The notes under the pieces: generated by a model
Told to the model about the DNA's origin: nothing
Seen by the model: only the letters and a program-made list of their open reading frames with translations
The model's database searches: none
IMG/VR virus record: IMGVR_UViG_2835052945_000005
Coordinates: 343 to 64,342 of that record
Direction: 5' to 3' (one strand)
Length of the DNA stretch: 64,000 nt
Source of the DNA: a virus
Taxonomy: Duplodnaviria; Caudoviricetes
Shown here: in pieces, positions 2,078 through 22,554 of the stretch
How the letters are laid out: every line of letters begins with the position of its first letter
Position numbering within the stretch: the stretch's first letter is position 1
Program-made: the position numbers and the translations under genes

Positions 2078-2305
2078 CTAGTTTCTGTCATAGGCCCAAC
2101 CGAGCCTAAATATCACGAATGGCACGATCAGTACGACGAAAAAAAACCGATAATCTTTTGTCGTAGGAATTAGGTCAGAAACATAGCCAATTTTGAATAT
2201 GCTGACCGCTCTTGAGTCGTTCTTACGAGTCGTGTACCACAACTCAGTCGATACACCAAAACCCATAATAAAACGATTGATGGTAACTGTTTTATCCACA
2301 ATCAT
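2078..2305 (-). CDS. Hypothetical small membrane protein, last gene of early operon
   Basis: 75 aa, hydrophobic C-terminal stretch; ATGA overlap with the mor-like stop. Confidence 0.5.
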   Translation of the reverse strand: MIVDKTVTINRFIMGFGVSTELWYTTRKNDSRAVSIFKIGYVSDLIPTTKDYRFFFVVLIVPFVIFRLGWAYDRN

Positions 2306-2667
2306 TTCCCCTCATCGTCGAACAGATCCAGACCAGGTTGTCGGCTTTTCATCACCCGCTTGTGGACTCGGTGAATCAGCTTTCGCAGGCCACGTTCGGT
2401 GATGCCGTATTTTGAGCTCAGTTCGGCCCAGTTGTTGCCTTTATGCTCGTTGTAAATCTGTAGATCACGAACCGCCAGCTTATAGACATAGTCACGCGGG
2501 AACGTGAAATTTTGTCCGCCAAAGTGCTCGGCCAGAAAATTAGCGACGGCGAGGCCCAACTGTTCGGCGTGTTCAACGGAACAACCATAATCGGTCGCAG
2601 TCTCTGCAACGTGATCGGCCAGCTCAGACAGCAGCTTATGGCGCTTCTCTTCCATCGTCGTGATCAT
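2302..2667 (-). CDS. Mor/C-family transcription activator
   Basis: FGGQNFTFP...RDLQIYNEHKGNNWAELSSKYGITERGLRKLI, typical Mor/C HTH. Confidence 0.9.
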   Translation of the reverse strand: MITTMEEKRHKLLSELADHVAETATDYGCSVEHAEQLGLAVANFLAEHFGGQNFTFPRDYVYKLAVRDLQIYNEHKGNNWAELSSKYGITERGLRKLIHRVHKRVMKSRQPGLDLFDDEGK

Positions 2668-2677
2668 GATTTACCCC

Positions 2678-3100
2678 TCACTCAACAGACTGGGCCTTGC
2701 GTTCGCGGGCCTGCCATTTCTTTAGTGATTCGATAACACGGCTGGCCTGGTCTGTGCTGAGCCAGTCCAACCGCCCGACGCCTGTGATCCTGTGCGCATA
2801 CGCATTGATTGCACGTTCAGAACTGTCCCGAATGTAGCCCTCATCGGCCATTTCAAGCCATAGCGCACGTATTTTCTTAGACTGTGCGTCAGTGGCTGTG
2901 ATCTTATGAGGCTTGGCACTTTTTACTTTAAAACCCAACTGCTTCATTGCATCTAAAACCTGTTGCAGTTGCTGATCGGTCATATCCTTAGTGCTGTTGA
3001 CGCCAGCATAGTTAATCAGGAACTGGCGATAGGTATCGTCATCCAGTTTGCGATCGCGTTTTGCAACGTGGATGAGTTTAACGAGTTGGTTTCTGTTCAT
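2678..3100 (-). CDS. Mu gp16/GemA-like regulatory protein
   Basis: LVKLIHVAKRDRKLDDDTYR...KIRALW...WLS...VIESLKKW; start trimmed to ATG 3100. Confidence 0.85.
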   Translation of the reverse strand: MNRNQLVKLIHVAKRDRKLDDDTYRQFLINYAGVNSTKDMTDQQLQQVLDAMKQLGFKVKSAKPHKITATDAQSKKIRALWLEMADEGYIRDSSERAINAYAHRITGVGRLDWLSTDQASRVIESLKKWQARERKAQSVE

Positions 3101-3278
3101 CGCTATCCTCCCGCCAAACAGTACCGCATGTAAGAACTGTCTCTGGGCGACGCTCATGTATCGCCTCCAGAACCAAATGGCATGACTCCTCTGTCAGATA
3201 AATATCATCCGAGACAGGCAACGCCTCGCAAGCATCAAAACCACAGGTTGAAACAAGCAATACAAAGCCAATGATCAC
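3078..3278 (-). CDS. Hypothetical small protein with hydrophobic N-terminus and 4 Cys
   Basis: 66 aa, tightly packed in operon. Confidence 0.55.
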   Translation of the reverse strand: MIIGFVLLVSTCGFDACEALPVSDDIYLTEESCHLVLEAIHERRPETVLTCGTVWREDSDEQKPTR

Positions 3279-7414: not shown

Positions 7415-9184
7415 TTAGCGTATGCCGACGGCATTAGCGGCGGCCGGTGCGACCATCAGTGCACTGACAACTGTCTCGATATCGTCAGCCGATATGCCGT
7501 CGGGGTATTGCGCGACCAGTTGCCGGTAATGCTGCGCCGTCCAGGGCTGTCCCTTTGATGACAGTCGCTCGCGCAGTTGCTTGGCGGCTTCGACATGAGT
7601 GAGTGGGCGTTGCTCGATACGCGGGCCGCGAACGTTCGACGCCGTGCCGCGTTTCGGCAGGTAGGCGGGTAACGCGGCGTCATCAATTGTGCGGTATGGG
7701 TCGAATTGCCCGCCGAACGGCACAGCCTTAGCTTTGCGCGATGCAACTGCCGCCTCTGCTGAATCCGTGCCCGTCACCAGTTGTTCAATCTGCTGGTTAA
7801 CGTGCTGGGTTACTGTGTCAGCCGGTTTCTTGTAACTTTCGCCGATGATCGCGGCATTCGTTGAGAAGCCGAATTCGTTCTCTGCCACCTCTTCGATAAG
7901 ATGAAATACTTCGTGGCCATCTTCGCCAGTCAGCACTATCTGTGCCGCGTCTGTACGCCACGGATTACTTGTGACCATGACAGACTCGCCAACCATGACG
8001 GACGGCACCGTTGACACATCGTACTTGCGGCCCTGAAACGAGATTTCGAGCGTCGGCTGAACCTTGCGGCGTTCCGGCGCAGCGATGGCCAGTTCGCGGC
8101 AGATGTCCACAGACGGCGCTTTAATCAGTTGTTCAGTTGTGATGCGCAGCCAGATGTCGTTCCGTGTTTGGCCGTGGCGGCTGTGTATCGCCGTCGCGTT
8201 AAAATGGCTGCGCCAGCGCGCCGCCATTGCGTTCAGTTCGTCCAGGCTGCTGACCGCGACGAACTTTAGCCCCGGTTCGAACTTGCGTTCGATAATGTCA
8301 CGGGCTTTCTCAACCTGCCCGGTAGCACGGGCATTCCCTGCTCTGTGGGCGATGATTTCAATGCCCAGGGATTTGCACAGATTGCGCGTCATGGCGGCGG
8401 TGTTGGCCGAGCCTGGGTCCATAAACAGCACTTTAGGTACGCCGTGCAATACGTCAGCGCTGCCGCGCTCTTGCATCGCATTGATTAGTACCGAACAGAG
8501 GTTTTCGCCGGATTCCGCGCCCATCACATACTCAACGTAAATCCAGCCGCTGGTGTGATCGGTGATCTCGTAGCTCCATACCCGGTCATTCGCTATCCGC
8601 GCCAGATTTTTGGGCTTGTTTTTATAGAACTGGTCACTGTTCATTACTTGCAATCCCGTCGTTTTCTTGCCGTTTTGCAGGTAATACAGGGTGCAGAGCG
8701 AGGCATCAATCAGCCAGACGTGATTCGGATGCAGGCTGGCCAACCGCGTGCTGGGTTCCGGCGCCATCAACTGATCGGGGTGAACGCCGTAGCCGCGCAT
8801 CGCGCGGATAATGGCGCTTTCCGATAACGGACGAATCTCGCCGGTAGCCTGATCGATGAATTCGGCGGTGATCATGTTGTTTGCCCGCAACTCCGCGACG
8901 GCGTCGGCAACCGAATACAGGCGTTTGCCGTTCTTACGGGTAGACTCAGTCAGCAGCGCGGAAATGGTCAGCGCCTCCTCGCGGGATAGCGCGGTTTTGC
9001 CGGCATCGGCGCGGCGTTTGCGGGGCAGTTTCGGCCGTATTTCGCCGAGTTTTCTTATCAACGTGGCGCGCGACATGTGTAACTCCTCGCAGGCGGCCTG
9101 ATAAATCGGCTCTTTATTGCCATGTCCGGCGGCGTCAACAGCCGAAGCAATACTAACCAGACGATCAATTAATACCGGGTTCAT
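7415..9184 (-). CDS. DDE transposase (MuA analogue)
   Basis: 589 aa; WLIDAS, FMDPGS, QVEKARDIIE catalytic segments. Confidence 0.92.
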   Translation of the reverse strand: MNPVLIDRLVSIASAVDAAGHGNKEPIYQAACEELHMSRATLIRKLGEIRPKLPRKRRADAGKTALSREEALTISALLTESTRKNGKRLYSVADAVAELRANNMITAEFIDQATGEIRPLSESAIIRAMRGYGVHPDQLMAPEPSTRLASLHPNHVWLIDASLCTLYYLQNGKKTTGLQVMNSDQFYKNKPKNLARIANDRVWSYEITDHTSGWIYVEYVMGAESGENLCSVLINAMQERGSADVLHGVPKVLFMDPGSANTAAMTRNLCKSLGIEIIAHRAGNARATGQVEKARDIIERKFEPGLKFVAVSSLDELNAMAARWRSHFNATAIHSRHGQTRNDIWLRITTEQLIKAPSVDICRELAIAAPERRKVQPTLEISFQGRKYDVSTVPSVMVGESVMVTSNPWRTDAAQIVLTGEDGHEVFHLIEEVAENEFGFSTNAAIIGESYKKPADTVTQHVNQQIEQLVTGTDSAEAAVASRKAKAVPFGGQFDPYRTIDDAALPAYLPKRGTASNVRGPRIEQRPLTHVEAAKQLRERLSSKGQPWTAQHYRQLVAQYPDGISADDIETVVSALMVAPAAANAVGIR

Positions 9185-12173: not shown

Positions 12174-12202
12174 ATTATGGGTACAATTGTACCCATTGTC
12201 AA
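12174..12202 (-). promoter_or_regulatory. Early promoter (TTGACA-N17-CATAAT) overlapped by a perfect 20-bp palindromic operator
   Basis: -35 at 12202-12197, -10 at 12179-12174 on minus strand; ATGGGTACAATTGTACCCAT at 12177-12196. Confidence 0.8.
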
Positions 12203-12210
12203 GGTGGGTT

Positions 12211-12552
12211 ATGGGTTCATTTGGTGACAGGTTAAAAGCAGAGCGAGAACGGCTTGGTATGAACCAGACGGATTTCGCAGAATTGGCGGGGACTACTAGG
12301 AAGTCTCAGTTTAATTACGAGTCAAATTTGAGGCGACCCGATGCTGACTACTTAGCTGCCGTAGCTGCTGCGGGAGTTGATGTTCTGTATGTATTAACAG
12401 GGCAACGGTCTATGCCTGTTGAATCACAGCTGTCTACTGAGCAGCAGCGGCTACTGGAGGCATTTAATACAATGACGCCGGAGCAGAAAAAAACAGTACT
12501 CGACGTTGGTCGGCTCCTTACCCAGCCCAAACCAGACGGTAAGGCCGGCTGA
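12211..12552 (+). CDS. Prophage repressor, XRE-family HTH
   Basis: FGDRLKAERERLGMNQTDFAELAGTTRKSQFNYESNLRRPDADYL; no S24 peptidase domain. Confidence 0.88.
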   Translation: MGSFGDRLKAERERLGMNQTDFAELAGTTRKSQFNYESNLRRPDADYLAAVAAAGVDVLYVLTGQRSMPVESQLSTEQQRLLEAFNTMTPEQKKTVLDVGRLLTQPKPDGKAG

Positions 12553-12782: not shown

Positions 12783-13094
12783 ATGAATTATTTTAGTACA
12801 GGAATGTTCTCTTTATTTCTCTTGATTCTCTCAGGCTGCGCTTCCAGTGGGCGTGATTTCAACGAATCAGCCATAACACAGTTACAGCCGGGCATTACCA
12901 CGCTAATGGATGCTACAGCGCTGCTTGGCTCTAAGCCGGTCCAGACTGTTAACCGCGCCGATGGGTACTCAGTTTCTTTCTGGCGTTATATTCAAGTGAA
13001 TGGAGTAGTTGCTACCACTCATCAGAAAGAAGTTGGGTTGGTTTTTGGCCCTGATGGTCATTATGTGCGAGTGTTCCATCAGGTAAGCCAATAA
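12783..13094 (+). CDS. Cargo lipoprotein, SmpA/BamE-like fold
   Basis: Lipobox LSGC; GRDFN...LQPGITT...ALLGSKP. Confidence 0.75.
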   Translation: MNYFSTGMFSLFLLILSGCASSGRDFNESAITQLQPGITTLMDATALLGSKPVQTVNRADGYSVSFWRYIQVNGVVATTHQKEVGLVFGPDGHYVRVFHQVSQ

Positions 13095-13178: not shown

Positions 13179-13559
13179 ATGCATTATTCCCGTCTGGGAT
13201 TACTCTCTTCAATATTTTTTCTCCTTACCGGATGTGCCACAAAACAGTATCCCATCGCCACGCCGATTCTGCCTGAAGAAGCCAGTGCAATGGGCTGCAA
13301 GGATCTCGACCGCGAGATCGCCCATGTGAAAAGTATTCAGTATCAAATTGAGAGAACGGGCGAGTTTAATGGCCGTACTGTGCTGGGCTTTTTAGGCGAT
13401 TTTGGTATCGGTAACGGCATTGCAAAATCTGATGCCCGTGACCGGGCACGCGATCGCGAGCGTCAGCTTTATTCGCTGAAAACCGAGAAATGCCGCGTTA
13501 TCTATTCAAATGGAGAGAATTATCCGGGTCCGAACGATAAACCTATCGGCACGGACTAA
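13179..13559 (+). CDS. Cargo lipoprotein of unknown function
   Basis: Lipobox LTGC; RBS AAGGAG; Gly-rich hydrophobic segment TVLGFLGDFGIGNGIA. Confidence 0.75.
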   Translation: MHYSRLGLLSSIFFLLTGCATKQYPIATPILPEEASAMGCKDLDREIAHVKSIQYQIERTGEFNGRTVLGFLGDFGIGNGIAKSDARDRARDRERQLYSLKTEKCRVIYSNGENYPGPNDKPIGTD

Positions 13560-14328
13560 AATTACCAATAATCAATTCCCGTTGCCGGGCATTCGCTCGA
13601 CCCGCTCCCTGTAGCGAATAGTGGATATCCACGCCCTCAAAGGGCAGCCCGGCAAAGACTTCTCGCATTTCCGGGATATCGTTCACTGAAATAATCATCC
13701 TCCCCTTTATCGTTTTCGCCAGATCCGCCAAAATCTGATAGTTTTCAAACTCGAACGCCACGCCGTAGCCTTCCGTCCCCCAGTATGGCGGATCGCAATA
13801 GAACAGCGTATGGGGCCGATCGTACTTCTCTACGCATCTATCCCAGGGCATATGTTCAATGCATGTTCGTGCCAGCCGCAAATGCGCCTGCGACAACTCC
13901 TCTTCAATGCGCAGCAGATTAAGACGTGGCGGACTGGTGGTCGCCGTGCCGAACGTCTGCCCCTCCAATTTTCCGCCGAATGACTGTTTTTGCAGATAAT
14001 AAAACCGCGCCGCTCGCTGAATATCCGTCAGCGTTTCAGTCGGCGTGATTTGCAGCCAGCGATACATCTCACGGCTAACCAGCGACCATTTAAACTGGCG
14101 GATAAACTCTTCCAGATGGTGCTGGATCACCCGGTACAAATTCACCAGTTCGCCATTGATATCGTTTAGCACTTCCGATTTTGCAGGGGATTTCATAAAA
14201 AACAGCGCCGCCGCGCCGCAGAACGGTTCGACGTAGCAGGTGTGTTCGGGGAATAGCGGCAATATTTGTTTGGCCAGCCTGCGTTTTCCGCCCAGCCAGG
14301 GAAAAAACGGGGTGTATGTCGATTTCAT
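13543..14328 (-). CDS. Dam-like (D12 class) N6-adenine DNA methyltransferase
   Basis: PWLGGKRRLA, YVEPFCG, NDINGELVNLY, DPPY. Confidence 0.92.
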   Translation of the reverse strand: MKSTYTPFFPWLGGKRRLAKQILPLFPEHTCYVEPFCGAAALFFMKSPAKSEVLNDINGELVNLYRVIQHHLEEFIRQFKWSLVSREMYRWLQITPTETLTDIQRAARFYYLQKQSFGGKLEGQTFGTATTSPPRLNLLRIEEELSQAHLRLARTCIEHMPWDRCVEKYDRPHTLFYCDPPYWGTEGYGVAFEFENYQILADLAKTIKGRMIISVNDIPEMREVFAGLPFEGVDIHYSLQGAGRANARQRELIIGNFSPCR

Positions 14329-14453
14329 CTACTGTAAGCCTTTTTCACATAGTGAAAATAAATTAAGCTGAATCTGTCTCGCGAGACGGACTGAGCCTCG
14401 GTTAGCTCACAGGTGTGTTCTGTGGGTTGACGGCCTGCCCGGTGTTGGCGCAC
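14325..14453 (-). CDS. Candidate 42-aa leader ORF translationally coupled to the methyltransferase
   Basis: GTG 14453 open to TGA 14327-14325, which overlaps the MTase ATG (ATGA). Confidence 0.4.
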   Translation of the reverse strand: MRQHRAGRQPTEHTCELTEAQSVSRDRFSLIYFHYVKKAYSR

Positions 14454-14471
14454 TGGGCGGGTCGCTCTTTT
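14431..14471 (+). terminator. 14-bp hairpin plus U-tract; candidate 3' end of a small RNA antisense to the MTase leader
   Basis: CGGCCTGCCCGGTG-TTGGCG-CACTGGGCGGGTCG then CTCTTTT; three G-U pairs form only on the plus strand. Confidence 0.65.
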
Positions 14472-14503
14472 CCCGCCCATTTTGATCGCAATCGCCACTC
14501 GGT

Positions 14504-14525
14504 TAATCTGCCCGAGGGCAAATTA
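14504..14525. promoter_or_regulatory. Palindromic late-activator site shared by divergent promoters (lysis operon and MTase)
   Basis: TAATCTGCCCGAGGGCAAATTA; -10-like CACAAT (plus, 14545-14550) and CAAAAT (minus, 14484-14479) at identical distance. Confidence 0.7.
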
Positions 14526-14594
14526 CATTCACCGCCCCGCATCCCACAATGGCCCCTGATCTATCGACTTATTTATCGTATCAGGGAGCTTCCC

Positions 14595-14951
14595 ATGTCC
14601 GTATTAACCAAAATTCAGCGCCAGCGACTGTTGGGCTGGCTGATTGCCGCCGTGGTATTGCTGATCGTTATCGCGTTGACATCGCCGCAGCAGTTAGGCA
14701 TCACCGTCTACAAACTCTCGCTGGTATCGCTGGCCGCCGTGCTGGGCTACCACCTCGACCGGGGATTATTTCCGTATGCCAGCCCCGGCAGTTACCTGCG
14801 CCACGACTGGAAAACCACTGCCGCCTATCAGGGGGAGGAACAGCCGGAGTTTCCCATTGTGCCAGGATTTGAACTGGTGTTCGCCGCCGTACTGCTGCGC
14901 CGGGCGGTGATTGTGCTGGCGGTGGTGCTGGGCGTGACGCTGGGGCTATGA
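14595..14951 (+). CDS. Putative holin
   Basis: 118 aa, three hydrophobic segments, directly before endolysin; RBS GGGAG. Confidence 0.8.
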   Translation: MSVLTKIQRQRLLGWLIAAVVLLIVIALTSPQQLGITVYKLSLVSLAAVLGYHLDRGLFPYASPGSYLRHDWKTTAAYQGEEQPEFPIVPGFELVFAAVLLRRAVIVLAVVLGVTLGL

Positions 14952-15580
14952 CGATGCGCCGGCTACTGTTGTTATCGCTGTTGCTCGCGTCCTGCCATGC
15001 CGTGCCGGTACAGGCGGATATTCCGCCCAATGCCGAACGCTATCAGCGAGAACTGACGCGCAACGCTCGCGTTATCTGGGGACTGGATGCGCCGGTGGCT
15101 ACCTTCGCCGGGCAGATCCATCAGGAGTCGCAGTGGAAAACCAACGCAAAATCGCCGGTCGGCGCGCAGGGACTGGCGCAGTTTATGCCCGCCACGTCAA
15201 AGTGGATTGCCGATATCTATCCCGCCGAACTGGGCGCCAACCAGCCGTACAACCCGTCATGGTCGCTGCGTGCGCTGGTGCAATACAACCAGTGGCACTG
15301 GCGGCGCATCACTGCTGCCGGCGATTGCGACCGCATGGCGTTTACGCTGTCGGCCTATAACGGCGGGCTGGGCTGGGTGCAGCGTGACCGCAAGCTGGCA
15401 GCGCAACGCGGTCTGGACAGTTCCCGCTACTGGGATCAGGTCGAGCGGGTCAACGCTGGCCGCTCCGGCGCCAATTTCCGCGAGAATCGCGGCTATCCCG
15501 ATCGCATTATTCACCGCTGGCAACCGCTGTATGTCGATGCCGGCTGGGGACTGGGGGTGTGCGATGAGCACCGTGATTAG
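14948..15580 (+). CDS. Endolysin, SLT-domain lytic transglycosylase with N-terminal signal/SAR segment
   Basis: GQIHQES, SPVGAQGLAQFMP, LSAYNGGLG. Confidence 0.9.
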   Translation: MTMRRLLLLSLLLASCHAVPVQADIPPNAERYQRELTRNARVIWGLDAPVATFAGQIHQESQWKTNAKSPVGAQGLAQFMPATSKWIADIYPAELGANQPYNPSWSLRALVQYNQWHWRRITAAGDCDRMAFTLSAYNGGLGWVQRDRKLAAQRGLDSSRYWDQVERVNAGRSGANFRENRGYPDRIIHRWQPLYVDAGWGLGVCDEHRD

Positions 15581-20472: not shown

Positions 20473-21739
20473 CGCCAGCTACGGCACCCTGCCGTTCTCC
20501 GAGCAGATTGCGTTTTTCCGCCGCAAACTGGCGCTGCCGACTACCGGCTGGACGGATATCTACAATGCCGAGCACGACTGGGCATTTGTGGTGGCCGGCG
20601 CCAACCGCAACGACCTGGTGAGCGATTTTCAACAGGCGGTAGACCGTTTCATTGCCGAGGGGCGCACGCTGGCGGATTTTCGCCAGGACTTTTCGTCCAT
20701 CGTTGAGAAACACGGCTGGAGCTATAACGGCGGGTTCGGCTGGCGCACGCGGGTGATCTACGACACCAATCTGCGCGGCAGCTATCAGGGCGGACGCTTC
20801 GCTCAGTTGATGGAACACCGCGAGACCATGCCGTACTGGGAATACGTTCACAGCGACGCCGTCGAGCATCCCCGCGAGCTGCACCTGGCGTGGGACAGCA
20901 TGATCCTGCGCTGGGACGATCCCTGGTGGACAACGCATTTCCCGCCCAACGGCTGGGGCTGTCAGTGTACTGTGCGCGGCCGCTCCGAATCGTGGATGAA
21001 ACGCAATGGGCGCAGCGTCGATACCGCGCCGGAAATCGTCTGGGAAGATCGGACGATCGGCCAGCGCAGCATCAACGGCTCCTACACCGTGCGGGTGCCG
21101 CAGGGTATCGATCCGTCGTTCGAGCATACGCCGGGGCGCTCAAGGCTGGACGGCCAGACGCCGCCGCCCCGCAATGATGACCCGCTGAGCGACAATCCGG
21201 CCAGTATGAGCAGTGCCGGCGCGCCGGGCGTTCCCAGCCGGACGCCATCGGATGCGCTACCCACGCCGCGCCCGGCCAGCGCCGAGCGGCTGCTGTCTGC
21301 CGGGCTAACCGATCGGGAGTACGCTGCCGCGTTCCTGGGCGAGTTCGGCGCCACGCTGGAGCAGCCGGCGATATACCGCGACGTGGTCGGAGAGCCGCTG
21401 GTGGTTGGCTCGGCGCTGTTTACCGTACGCAAAACCGGGGCGCTCAAAATCAGCAAACGCGGCCGCGAACGGTTTTTATTACTACTGGCCGATGCTATCC
21501 GAGAACCTGATGAAGTCTGGACGCGTATCGAATGGATGGCGGCACGCAACGCTGCCATTGTCCGACGCCGCTATATCGCCCGGTTTGATATCGACGATAC
21601 AACAACGCCCGCATTGGCGGTCTTTGACGTCGGCGCTGATGGTTGGACGGGCGTAACAACATTCGCGCCTGATGACGCGGATTATCTTGATGGGTTACGG
21701 ATCGGTGTACGAACATATCGGCGAGATGAAAAAGCGTAA
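20459..21739 (+). CDS. MuF head morphogenesis protein with C-terminal nuclease-fold (PBECR2-like) extension
   Basis: MuF core RVIYDTNL...HPRELHLAW...FPPNGWGCQC; Pro/Ser linker; C-terminal LADAIREPDEVW...RRRYIARF...WTGVTTF. Confidence 0.8.
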   Translation: MATTNASYGTLPFSEQIAFFRRKLALPTTGWTDIYNAEHDWAFVVAGANRNDLVSDFQQAVDRFIAEGRTLADFRQDFSSIVEKHGWSYNGGFGWRTRVIYDTNLRGSYQGGRFAQLMEHRETMPYWEYVHSDAVEHPRELHLAWDSMILRWDDPWWTTHFPPNGWGCQCTVRGRSESWMKRNGRSVDTAPEIVWEDRTIGQRSINGSYTVRVPQGIDPSFEHTPGRSRLDGQTPPPRNDDPLSDNPASMSSAGAPGVPSRTPSDALPTPRPASAERLLSAGLTDREYAAAFLGEFGATLEQPAIYRDVVGEPLVVGSALFTVRKTGALKISKRGRERFLLLLADAIREPDEVWTRIEWMAARNAAIVRRRYIARFDIDDTTTPALAVFDVGADGWTGVTTFAPDDADYLDGLRIGVRTYRRDEKA

Positions 21740-21832: not shown

Positions 21833-22333
21833 ATGGCCGGCGTCACGATTGTTTTTGCGGCTCAGCAGGCGCTCGACAGCCTGCTGAAAATGGAGGGCCA
21901 ACTGGCCGATCCGACGCCCATGCTGGCCGAGATGGGCGAGGAACTGCTGGATATTCACAAAAAACGATTTGCTGATCAGATGTCGCCGGACGGCGTACCC
22001 TGGGCGCCGCTACAGCCGTGGTACAAAGCGGAGAAAAAGCGTAACGCCGATAAGGTGCTGACGCTGGACGGCTATCTGGGCAATACGCTGCGCTGGCAAA
22101 TTCGCGCCGGCGAGCTGCTGTTCGGCACCGACCGGCCCTACGGAGCGATCCATCATTTCGGCGGCACCATCAAACCGAAAACCGCCGGCGCGCTCAACGT
22201 AGGCGGTCGTCCGGTTAAACAGGTGACCATCCCGGCTCGGCCGTGGCTGGGGGTCTCCGACAGCGACGGCAAAACGCTGGTCGACATCGCGTCGGATCAT
22301 CTGCAAAAGGCGTTAAAGTCGGGAGCGCCGTAA
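21833..22333 (+). CDS. Virion morphogenesis protein (Mu gpG-like)
   Basis: SPDGVPWAPL...GTDRPYGAIHHFGG...IPARPWLG. Confidence 0.9.
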   Translation: MAGVTIVFAAQQALDSLLKMEGQLADPTPMLAEMGEELLDIHKKRFADQMSPDGVPWAPLQPWYKAEKKRNADKVLTLDGYLGNTLRWQIRAGELLFGTDRPYGAIHHFGGTIKPKTAGALNVGGRPVKQVTIPARPWLGVSDSDGKTLVDIASDHLQKALKSGAP

Positions 22334-22476
22334 AACGGCCGTAGCGGCGTTCAGGCGTTTCTGATGTGCGATGACCCCGGCGCGCGGCGTCAGGATTATT
22401 ATAATAGCTTTTAATAACGCTCCCGCCGGGTTTAACCCGCCCCTGCCACGTTCCCCCGTCATTCCATCACGTTGCA

Positions 22477-22498
22477 TTATTTGCCCGAGGGCAGATTA
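22477..22498 (+). promoter_or_regulatory. Second late-activator site upstream of the protease/capsid operon
   Basis: TTATTTGCCCGAGGGCAGATTA; -10-like CATCAT at 22518-22523, same spacing as at 14504. Confidence 0.7.
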
Positions 22499-22554
22499 CC
22501 CCGCCGCGCGATAGCAGCATCATGGCCGCATTATTGAGTGACGGACGATGATAA

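Follow-up and report, generated by a model that had tools for sequence, protein, structure and literature searches.

How is the DNA methylase gene of a Mu-like prophage controlled, and what is the role of the leader that precedes it? The question is raised by a stretch of 64,000 nucleotides from a member of the Caudoviricetes (positions 343 to 64,342 of IMG/VR record IMGVR_UViG_2835052945_000005; hereafter the window), in which a gene for a Dam-like DNA adenine methyltransferase (hereafter the methylase) lies on the minus strand behind a leader of about 145 nt. An initial annotation of this locus had suggested that an antisense RNA silences the methylase by blocking a small open reading frame (ORF) in the leader, with possible feedback from DNA methylation. 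Our comparison of the locus with its relatives partly supports this interpretation. Positions 14329-14473 are probably a portable cassette of ~145 bp that controls a phage gene for DNA modification, in which both strands would be functional, and the plus strand at 14364-14472 is predicted to be the gene for a structured small RNA of ~100 nt that is antisense to the 5' leader of the methylase (Table 1).

When folded computationally, the plus strand of 14329-14478 reached -64 kcal/mol (z = -4.86), a value equalled by none of 200 shuffled sequences; the minimum-energy structure makes up 20% of the ensemble, and its hairpins are well defined. The minus strand of the same segment folds far less well (-48.2 kcal/mol, z = -2.74). 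The predicted RNA begins with a 5' hairpin (P2), continues into a long-range helix (P1) that encloses two further hairpins (P3 and P4) in a three-way junction, and ends in a U-rich stretch near 14472; a terminator scan also called the P4 hairpin and its U-tract on the plus strand. Conserved throughout the family are the junction GCCUUGG, the P4 loop GGUGUUnnCGCACC, and a GUCGC that follows P4. The sequence features listed by the initial annotation were all found where it had placed them, including the palindromes TTTTCACATAGTGAAAA and GTCTCGCGAGAC and a -10-like TAAGCT that lacks a clear -35 element; the one correction concerns the 14-bp hairpin, now P4, which is followed by GCTC and TTTT as described but contains four G.U pairs rather than three. 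The cassette is present in a single copy in its own genome.

Two covariance models were built from regions upstream of homologous methylases, R1 from eight enterobacterial copies and R2 from 52 copies. The stretch that holds the hairpin proved to be conserved, with compensatory changes, at well over a hundred loci; the leader ORF was not. In the 52 genome copies 93.7% of cells are paired, compared to 73.0 ± 0.6% in shuffles, and in 51 distinct viral copies the corresponding values are 93.5% and 69.1%. The alignments behind these counts had been fitted to the model, so that the share of paired cells comes out too high; even without alignment, however, the sequences clearly show one type of pair replaced by another. 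Changes on both sides were found in 40 of 42 pairs in the genome copies and in 35 of 37 in the viral ones, and the covariation score was 0.605 in the former (0.224 in shuffles, 0.05-0.14 when the partners were slid) and 0.663 in the latter (0.224 and 0.06-0.17, respectively). Helix P1 is paired in 99-99.5% with exchanges among GC, AU, UA and CG, appearing as GAGC/GCTC in the window, as GAAC/GTTC in E. coli and as GGGAGC/GCUCCC elsewhere; the inner P2 helix is 95% paired, and all 13 modelled pairs of P4 vary on both sides across the 52 copies. Judged by these comparisons, the element represents a family of structured RNAs, strongly covarying and without an entry in Rfam 15.

The strand on which this structure is selected can be read from its wobble pairs. 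On the plus strand there are 280 G.U pairs and 39 A.C mismatches in all; the counts are 212 and 10 for P1, P3 and P4 combined (P3, 121 to 3; P4, 82 to 7) and 44 and 10 for P2, and the viral set agrees. At several positions G.U is the commonest pair, where the messenger strand would carry a C.A mismatch. The selected fold is therefore antisense to the methylase, and selection for structure on the messenger strand, as in a riboswitch-like leader, was not found in P1, P3 and P4. A further helix, P0, between the anti-Shine-Dalgarno region and the -10 region, behaves differently: with 16 A.C against 7 G.U on the plus strand it points to the sense strand, and it was taken out of the RNA model for this reason. 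These data also bear on whether there is an RNA gene here at all. The palindromes might instead serve as operators on the DNA, with the hairpin doing no more than terminating or insulating rightward read-through from the immunity and cargo genes, or the fold might belong to a sense-strand 5' untranslated region (UTR). In favor of this, GTCTCGCGAGAC is a perfect palindrome, and no terminator separates the lipoprotein gene (13179-13559, +) from the 3' end of the methylase, so that plus-strand read-through would stop at 14471. However, the helix sequences vary while their pairing is kept, unlike DNA operators for one protein; a promoter-like box keeps a constant distance; other phages have nothing on that strand to terminate; and the more than 20-fold excess of G.U over A.C in P1, P3 and P4 excludes the sense strand. 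We regard the absence of an RNA gene as very improbable.

The promoter-like box is a hexamer, [T/C]AnnnT, which ends 21-27 nt before P1 in 51 of the 52 genome copies; in each of the 51 viral copies, 5-7 nt separate its end from the inner P2 helix. It is fixed only at positions 1, 2 and 6 (examples are TAGGCT, TAGACT, TACAAT, TAGAAT and TACACT), and about two thirds of the copies (~33/52 and 36/51) carry TGn just upstream, where the expectation is near 6%. By its sequence pattern this is the signature of a -10 box and not of a pairing partner. Across the family, the RNA is thus predicted to have its own promoter opposite the target leader; the window copy reads TAAGCT and has no TGn. With the start set 7 nt past the hexamer, the predicted RNA has its 5' end at the base of P2, and its length is 99-107 nt in all copies. 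In the window it would start at ~14376, about 47 nt upstream of the methylase ATG, and this predicted start leaves the methylase Shine-Dalgarno sequence uncovered. The 8 nt that follow P1 are 56% U and 81% pyrimidine in the 52 copies, making an intrinsic terminator plausible in most of them and weak in some. Covariation, strand bias and the -10 box all argue for the ~100-nt plus-strand RNA ending near 14471 that had been postulated, and which is still a predicted one. A conserved methylase promoter inside the cassette was also considered and dropped; compact copies have only ~20 nt between the -10 box and the ATG.

The limits of the cassette were indicated by blastn. Matches to Klebsiella phage KP12, Escherichia phage PhiKM, Phi06_2974B and 562 of 5426 complete E. 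coli genomes (about 10%) span the interior of the methylase and the leader and all end at 14470; past this point, the end of the hairpin and T-tract, no similarity is left among the relatives. In a search of 80 methylase loci on one-genome-per-species contigs, model R1 matched over its full length, next to the methylase start and invariably on the other strand, at 47 loci, and R2 added ten; with R1 or R2, about 62 of the 80 loci have such a copy. The R1 loci span the Enterobacterales, Shewanella, Pseudomonas, Iodobacter, Hydrogenophaga, Thiobacillus, Azoarcus, Thiomicrospira, Methylophaga and Geobacter. R2 also detected the cassette in 69 of 80 IMG/VR viral contigs that encode the methylase, and it was matched in phages VP882, phi1026b, Bise and MuM16-1. 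A class-wide sample of 150 genomes contained it in six; five of these copies abut a D12 methylase and one, at locus L092, abuts an N6_N4 methylase. In the Pseudomonas genus to which locus L080 belongs, 53 of 141 genomes (38%) carry one to four copies.

The controlled gene is not always of the same family. The cassette at L092 (118-1647) precedes a 461-aa N6_N4 DNA methylase (PF01555) that is unrelated to the D12 family, and the start region of that gene, GGUCUCAC, matches the P3 arm, GUCUCACAG. Among 30 loci inspected in the genus of L080, most copies stand before D12 methylases and three, in three Pseudomonas genomes (L182, L190 and L203, about 1500-1840), before a gene for the Mu Com zinc-ribbon protein (PF10122, E about 1e-20). 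On this evidence the cassette follows function, not ancestry. The ORFs that come after com at these three loci encode products of 283 aa (with a weak Glyoxalase-fold match) and 389 aa (with no Pfam match); they may be Mom-like or other DNA-modification enzymes.

The match between start region and P3 arm at L092 is one case of a general relation. The methylase initiation region just before the AUG, GGCUYRCAG, is nearly identical to the 5' arm of P3, and the two co-vary across lineages: there is a CUUGCAG class and a CUCACAG class, an AAUG insertion is found in both elements of L038, GUCUCAC occurs in both at the PF01555 locus, and GGCUUUGCAG in the com loci. The anti-P3 arm of the leader can therefore pair with the start region over 8-9 nt. 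The computed energy of this pairing is -12.1 kcal/mol for a copy's own pair, -9.5 for mismatched pairs and -6.2 for shuffled ones, and in 5000 permutations the observed value was never reached. The complement of the RNA -10 region provides a second, proximal mask (helix P0); it is weaker (-8.1 vs. -7.1 kcal/mol), and its mismatches favor the messenger strand. The modelled cost of opening the start region is about 8 kcal/mol. As predicted from these pairings, the messenger's own leader can mask the ribosome-binding region of the methylase.

For the RNA to meet such a leader, transcription of the methylase has to cross the cassette. At 12 or more distant loci, a long ORF running in the direction of the methylase terminates at a distance of 0-20 nt from the small RNA 3' end; several of these ORFs were identified by Pfam as Mu portal, portal or tail-tip (tail J-like) proteins, and in VP882, phi1026b and MuM16-1 tail or lysis genes occupy the position beyond the RNA 3' end. 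To judge from this context, the methylase of those phages would be fed by late-operon read-through across the RNA gene, and its messenger would overlap that gene. The 64 kb of the window contain exactly three instances of the pattern GGGCA-N24-CAnnATGG[GC]C (Table 1), one of them directed toward the methylase. Regions with this late-promoter geometry lie at 14503-14554 and 22476-22527, with the palindrome TGCCCGAGGGCA, and the palindrome TTAATCTGCCCGAGGGCAAATTA (14503-14525) is common to the sites at 14513 and 14516, that is, to the methylase promoter and the rightward lysis promoter. Geometry and palindrome probably mark a Mor-type activator site, used both ways at 14503-14525. A Mor-family gene is present and the motif stands at three predicted promoters, and the leftward late promoter proposed by the initial annotation is supported by this comparison. 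It places the predicted start of methylase transcription near 14472, opposite the 3' end of the small RNA. The promoter region lies outside the cassette, is specific to this phage and is not conserved in relatives. The cassette was also considered as a leader or attenuator of the lysis operon; this was dropped, as relatives have variable genes, some of them on the opposite strand, between the element and the holin gene.

Thermodynamic modelling gave no consistent direction in which the RNA would change methylase expression. We favor a brake. The reasons are that the promoter of the RNA looks constitutive, that untimely expression of the genes under control (Dam-like, Mom-type) is harmful, and that head-on late transcription would titrate the RNA and silence its promoter. 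The same RNA gene could also act with the opposite sign, displacing the anti-P3 mask, freeing the start site and activating translation, so that a Com-like role would be played by an RNA. The strongest co-varying long-range pairing of the messenger is indeed that of the start region with the anti-P3 arm, which is located inside the RNA-complementary part, and when this part is masked, the unpaired probability goes up in 14 and down in 1 of 49 copies. However, once the distal mask is gone the proximal one (the P0 5' arm) takes over and the opening energy is not lower on average; constitutive activation of a gene dangerous in the lysogen makes little regulatory sense; and the cassette also precedes com, itself an activator. 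We therefore consider activation unlikely, though it deserves to be kept in mind.

The explanation we favor, and judge to have a somewhat better than even chance of being right, is thus a two-strand cassette in which an antisense RNA acts as a brake on a modification gene. The methylase messenger would start upstream of the cassette, from the Mor-type late promoter here and by read-through of late genes in other phages, and its leader would therefore be fully complementary to the small RNA. Two segments of this leader, able to pair with the methylase ribosome-binding region, would mask translation by default. The antisense RNA, made constitutively, would pair with stray or early methylase leaders and inactivate them, either by cleavage of the duplex or by continued masking of the start site, and a potentially harmful DNA-modification enzyme would be locked off in the lysogen. 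Strong late transcription would then titrate the small RNA and silence its promoter by head-on passage. The comparison of copies demonstrates the RNA fold and its strand, the signals that resemble a promoter and a terminator, the association with modification genes and the way in which start region and leader vary together; that the RNA is produced, that it works in cis and that it works as a brake are three steps which we infer from these sequence data. More tentatively, and with a good deal less confidence, the cassette may be seen as a two-strand RNA switch, complete in itself and moving horizontally, that fits in front of any DNA-modification gene, be it Dam-like, N6_N4 or com-mom. In the RNA, one arm would be a co-evolving copy of the ribosome-binding region, RNA and start site would compete for the masking segment, and the whole would be an RNA counterpart of the Com protein, setting the timing and amount of the enzyme.

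Several observations, besides the inflated pair percentages mentioned above, weigh against the antisense brake. Masking the RNA-complementary part of the leader changes the opening energy of the start region by a mean of only +0.19 kcal/mol (18 copies become harder to open and 11 easier, p = 0.13), and the mean unpaired probability rises only from 0.38 to 0.44. The window promoter is weak on paper (TAAGCT, no TGn, no -35) and below average for the family; the U-tract of the window has only four U, placed after the P1 strand rather than directly after the P4 stem; and several distant copies have pyrimidine-rich rather than U-rich tails. Finally, an RNA that acted purely as a cis-antisense would not require the degree of conservation seen in the P4 loop and in the junction GCCUUGG; this hints at a protein partner or a second target.

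This last point leads to the view that the RNA acts mainly in trans or through a protein, as an Hfq-type regulator of host or phage genes or as a decoy, and merely shares a cassette with modification genes. The highly conserved single-stranded junction and P4 loop and the U-rich 3' tail would fit such a role, as would the retention of the element in 27 E. coli genomes with a truncated methylase. VP882 has been reported to make Hfq-binding small RNAs (PMC12197685, PMC13397905). On the other hand, the element always abuts the start of a DNA-modification gene, in the same orientation and in three unrelated families; the start region of the gene co-evolves with the RNA; the cassette is not repeated in its own genome; and the 27 methylase-less copies, at least 99% identical, go back to one recent deletion. 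We consider a predominantly trans-acting RNA improbable.

The deletion itself is represented by E. coli TW14425 (L004:2926-3156), in which all of the methylase save ~80 nt of its 5' end is gone, the RNA cassette is intact and the Shine-Dalgarno region has a G-to-C change. Deletions of this type were found in 27 of 5426 E. coli genomes with an identity of at least 99%, and are therefore taken as a single, recent clonal event; the idea that this element signals an independent role of the RNA was dropped accordingly.

The full mechanism first proposed for the locus, in which the antisense RNA blocks a 42-codon leader ORF overlapping the methylase ATG and the promoter is subject to feedback through Dam methylation of a GATC site, fares worse. 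The ORF exists in the window: it ends at 14325 on the minus strand, its TGA overlaps the ATG (ATGA), and it has 57 codons counted from GTG 14498 and 42 from GTG 14453. A coupling to the methylase is not supported, as the frame is interrupted by in-frame stops in KP12, Phi06_2974B and E. coli S12 and shifted by 1-nt or 3-nt indels in PhiKM, AR0086 and AR0085, and 50 diverse copies have no consistent start, length or stop, with about 19 lacking an ORF altogether. By this comparison the 42/57-codon ORF is a chance reading frame with no part in the control. The GATC is likewise present, at 14485-14488, abutting the predicted -10 CAAAAT, but outside the conserved cassette; within the cassette no GATC or GANTC is conserved, a GATC being found at scattered positions in only 6 of the 52 copies, so that methylation feedback finds no support. 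The complete scheme is extremely unlikely.

Rfam 15 gave no match at gathering score over the whole window and none at threshold in 20 other loci; at E <= 10 over 14250-14560 only the sub-threshold models ctRNA_pGA1, symR, mir-374 and sR60 appeared. The best of these, RF00236 (ctRNA_pGA1), covers P3, P4 and the tail with 29.3 bits here and 44.4 bits in phi1026b, against a gathering threshold of 45, which by these scores is a resemblance of architecture, not membership. Like this and other plasmid countertranscripts (CopA/CopT of R1, RNAI of ColIb-P9), the predicted RNA is short, constitutive and structured, is encoded on the strand facing the leader of its target gene, carries a pair of neighboring hairpins with a U-tail, and faces a target whose ribosome-binding site is hidden by leader structure. 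Unlike them, it has an extra 5' hairpin and a long-range helix that create a three-way junction, it scores below 45 bits in every copy tested, and it would control phage DNA-modification genes and not replication, with no conserved leader peptide of the tap/repY type. The conserved coupled leader ORF of hok/mok/sok, P1 c4/icd/ant and R1 CopA/tap was not found here either.

A closer functional parallel is the com-mom operon of phage Mu, with its C-dependent Pmom and a Com protein that opens a translation-inhibiting structure. Both cases involve a Mu-like phage, a late activator-dependent promoter (a predicted one here, where a Mor/C-family activator is present) and a DNA-modification gene whose start is buried in messenger structure, and the cassette even precedes com genes in Pseudomonas prophages. 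In contrast to Mu, no Com gene precedes the methylase here, as there is no conserved leader ORF; the extra layer would be an antisense RNA instead of a zinc-finger protein; no Dam/OxyR-type GATC cluster is conserved; and in three Pseudomonas loci Com is itself the gene under the control of the cassette. The antisense RNAs of P22 sar/ant, lambda OOP/cII and IS10 RNA-OUT, from phages or a transposon, likewise act in cis, each with a promoter and a terminator of its own, and keep down a gene whose untimely expression is harmful, and IS10 combines its antisense RNA with start-site masking (fold-back inhibition) in read-through transcripts. None of the three has sequence or model similarity to the cassette RNA, which avoids the start codon and is far more structured and more widely conserved. 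The D12-methyl RNA motif of the Weinberg laboratory is reportedly a sense-strand 5' UTR element from gut metagenomes; it shares with the cassette a conserved RNA structure beside D12-class adenine methylase genes and differs from it in that our fold lies on the antisense strand. A literature search found no description of the element, an overlap with one of the published small RNAs of VP882 being possible.

Phage Dam-like and other orphan methylases, as well as Mom-type enzymes, protect phage DNA from restriction, and such modification enzymes can disturb the mismatch repair, replication timing and gene expression of the host. To our knowledge, their silencing in lysogens by temperate phages is known only for Mu mom. 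If the brake is real, the cassette would be a second, RNA-based and very common solution to the same problem, carried by Mu-like, lambdoid and other temperate phages across the Proteobacteria, including the studied phages VP882 and phi1026b.

By its gene content, identified by Pfam search, the window is a BcepMu-like (Mu-type) transposable prophage. Its closest database phages are KP12 and PhiKM (Bcepmuvirus), with an identical gene order, and the homologues of the methylase in relatives are annotated as DNA adenine methylase. BcepMu has different cargo and no methylase at this position; the methylase thus counts as accessory cargo, lying between the immunity module and the lysis module. The second lipoprotein-like cargo gene and the methylase overlap tail-to-tail by 17 bp (13543-13559) with no terminator between them, and rightward transcription of the cargo would traverse the entire methylase gene in antisense, up to the hairpin at 14432-14471.

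Table 1. Features of the cassette and its surroundings. Positions are those of the window unless another record is named; promoters, RNA ends and helices are predictions.
Feature	Position	Strand	Basis or remark
Mor-family activator gene	2305-2667	-	Pfam
GemA gene	about 2681-3157	-	Pfam
rve transposase gene	7415-9184	-	Pfam
Helix-turn-helix (HTH) repressor gene	12187-12552	+	Pfam
Lipoprotein-like cargo genes (two)	12783-13094 and 13179-13559	+	
Dam-like DNA adenine methyltransferase gene (D12 class), 261 aa	13543-14328	-	ORF; MethyltransfD12 PF02086, E = 2.1e-27
Methylase ATG	complement of 14326-14328	-	
Methylase translation initiation region	14329-14345	-	within conserved cassette; nearly identical to P3 5' arm
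GGCUUACAG	complement of 14332-14340	-	
Methylase Shine-Dalgarno sequence AAGG	complement of 14339-14342	-	
A/T-rich spacer with palindrome TTTTCACATAGTGAAAA (14342-14358)	14342-14363		loop of possible Shine-Dalgarno-masking hairpin P0 in methylase messenger
Predicted -10 box TAAGCT of small RNA promoter	14364-14369	+	no -35, no TGn in this copy
P2, 5' hairpin GTCT-CGCG-AGAC (palindrome GTCTCGCGAGAC)	14375-14386	+	covarying helix
P1 5' strand GAGC and conserved junction CTCGG (family consensus GCCUUGG)	14392-14400	+	
P3 hairpin, 13 pairs including four G.U	14401-14431	+	fold, covariation
P4 hairpin, 14 pairs including four G.U, 4-nt loop	14432-14463	+	fold, terminator scan, covariation
P1 3' strand GCTC and U-tract TTTT (14468-14471); predicted small RNA 3' end	14464-14473	+	homology with relatives ends here
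Predicted activator-dependent methylase late promoter	14479-14525	-	-10 CAAAAT, complement of 14479-14484
GGGCA-N24-CAnnATGG[GC]C site	14513	-	toward methylase
GGGCA-N24-CAnnATGG[GC]C site	14516	+	before lysis operon
Holin gene	14595-14951	+	Pfam
SLT lysin gene	14948-15580	+	Pfam
GGGCA-N24-CAnnATGG[GC]C site	22489	+	before head operon
Homologous site in phage phi1026b	complement(about 22035-22180) of AY453853		
Homologous site in phage VP882	complement(about 20852-21007) of EF057797		

Some individual loci of the survey deserve mention. In Pseudomonas phage Bise (L098:1459-2853) the cassette is directly preceded by a gene for a protein of the reverse-transcriptase family, and ~175 nt separate the cassette from the annotated methylase start, a gap comparable to those at L042, L066, L028 and L030; the methylase start may be mis-annotated in Bise, or the protein may carry an N-terminal extension. 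One genome (G029) has two identical copies of cassette and methylase (L094 and L095), in both of which the methylase match is split in two (residues 7-91 and 96-257), which suggests a frame shift or indel. At L091 (1-597), nine sub-threshold matches to CRISPR-DR32 follow one another at even intervals some 900 nt away from a methylase cassette, pointing to an array of clustered regularly interspaced short palindromic repeats (CRISPR) beside that prophage end.

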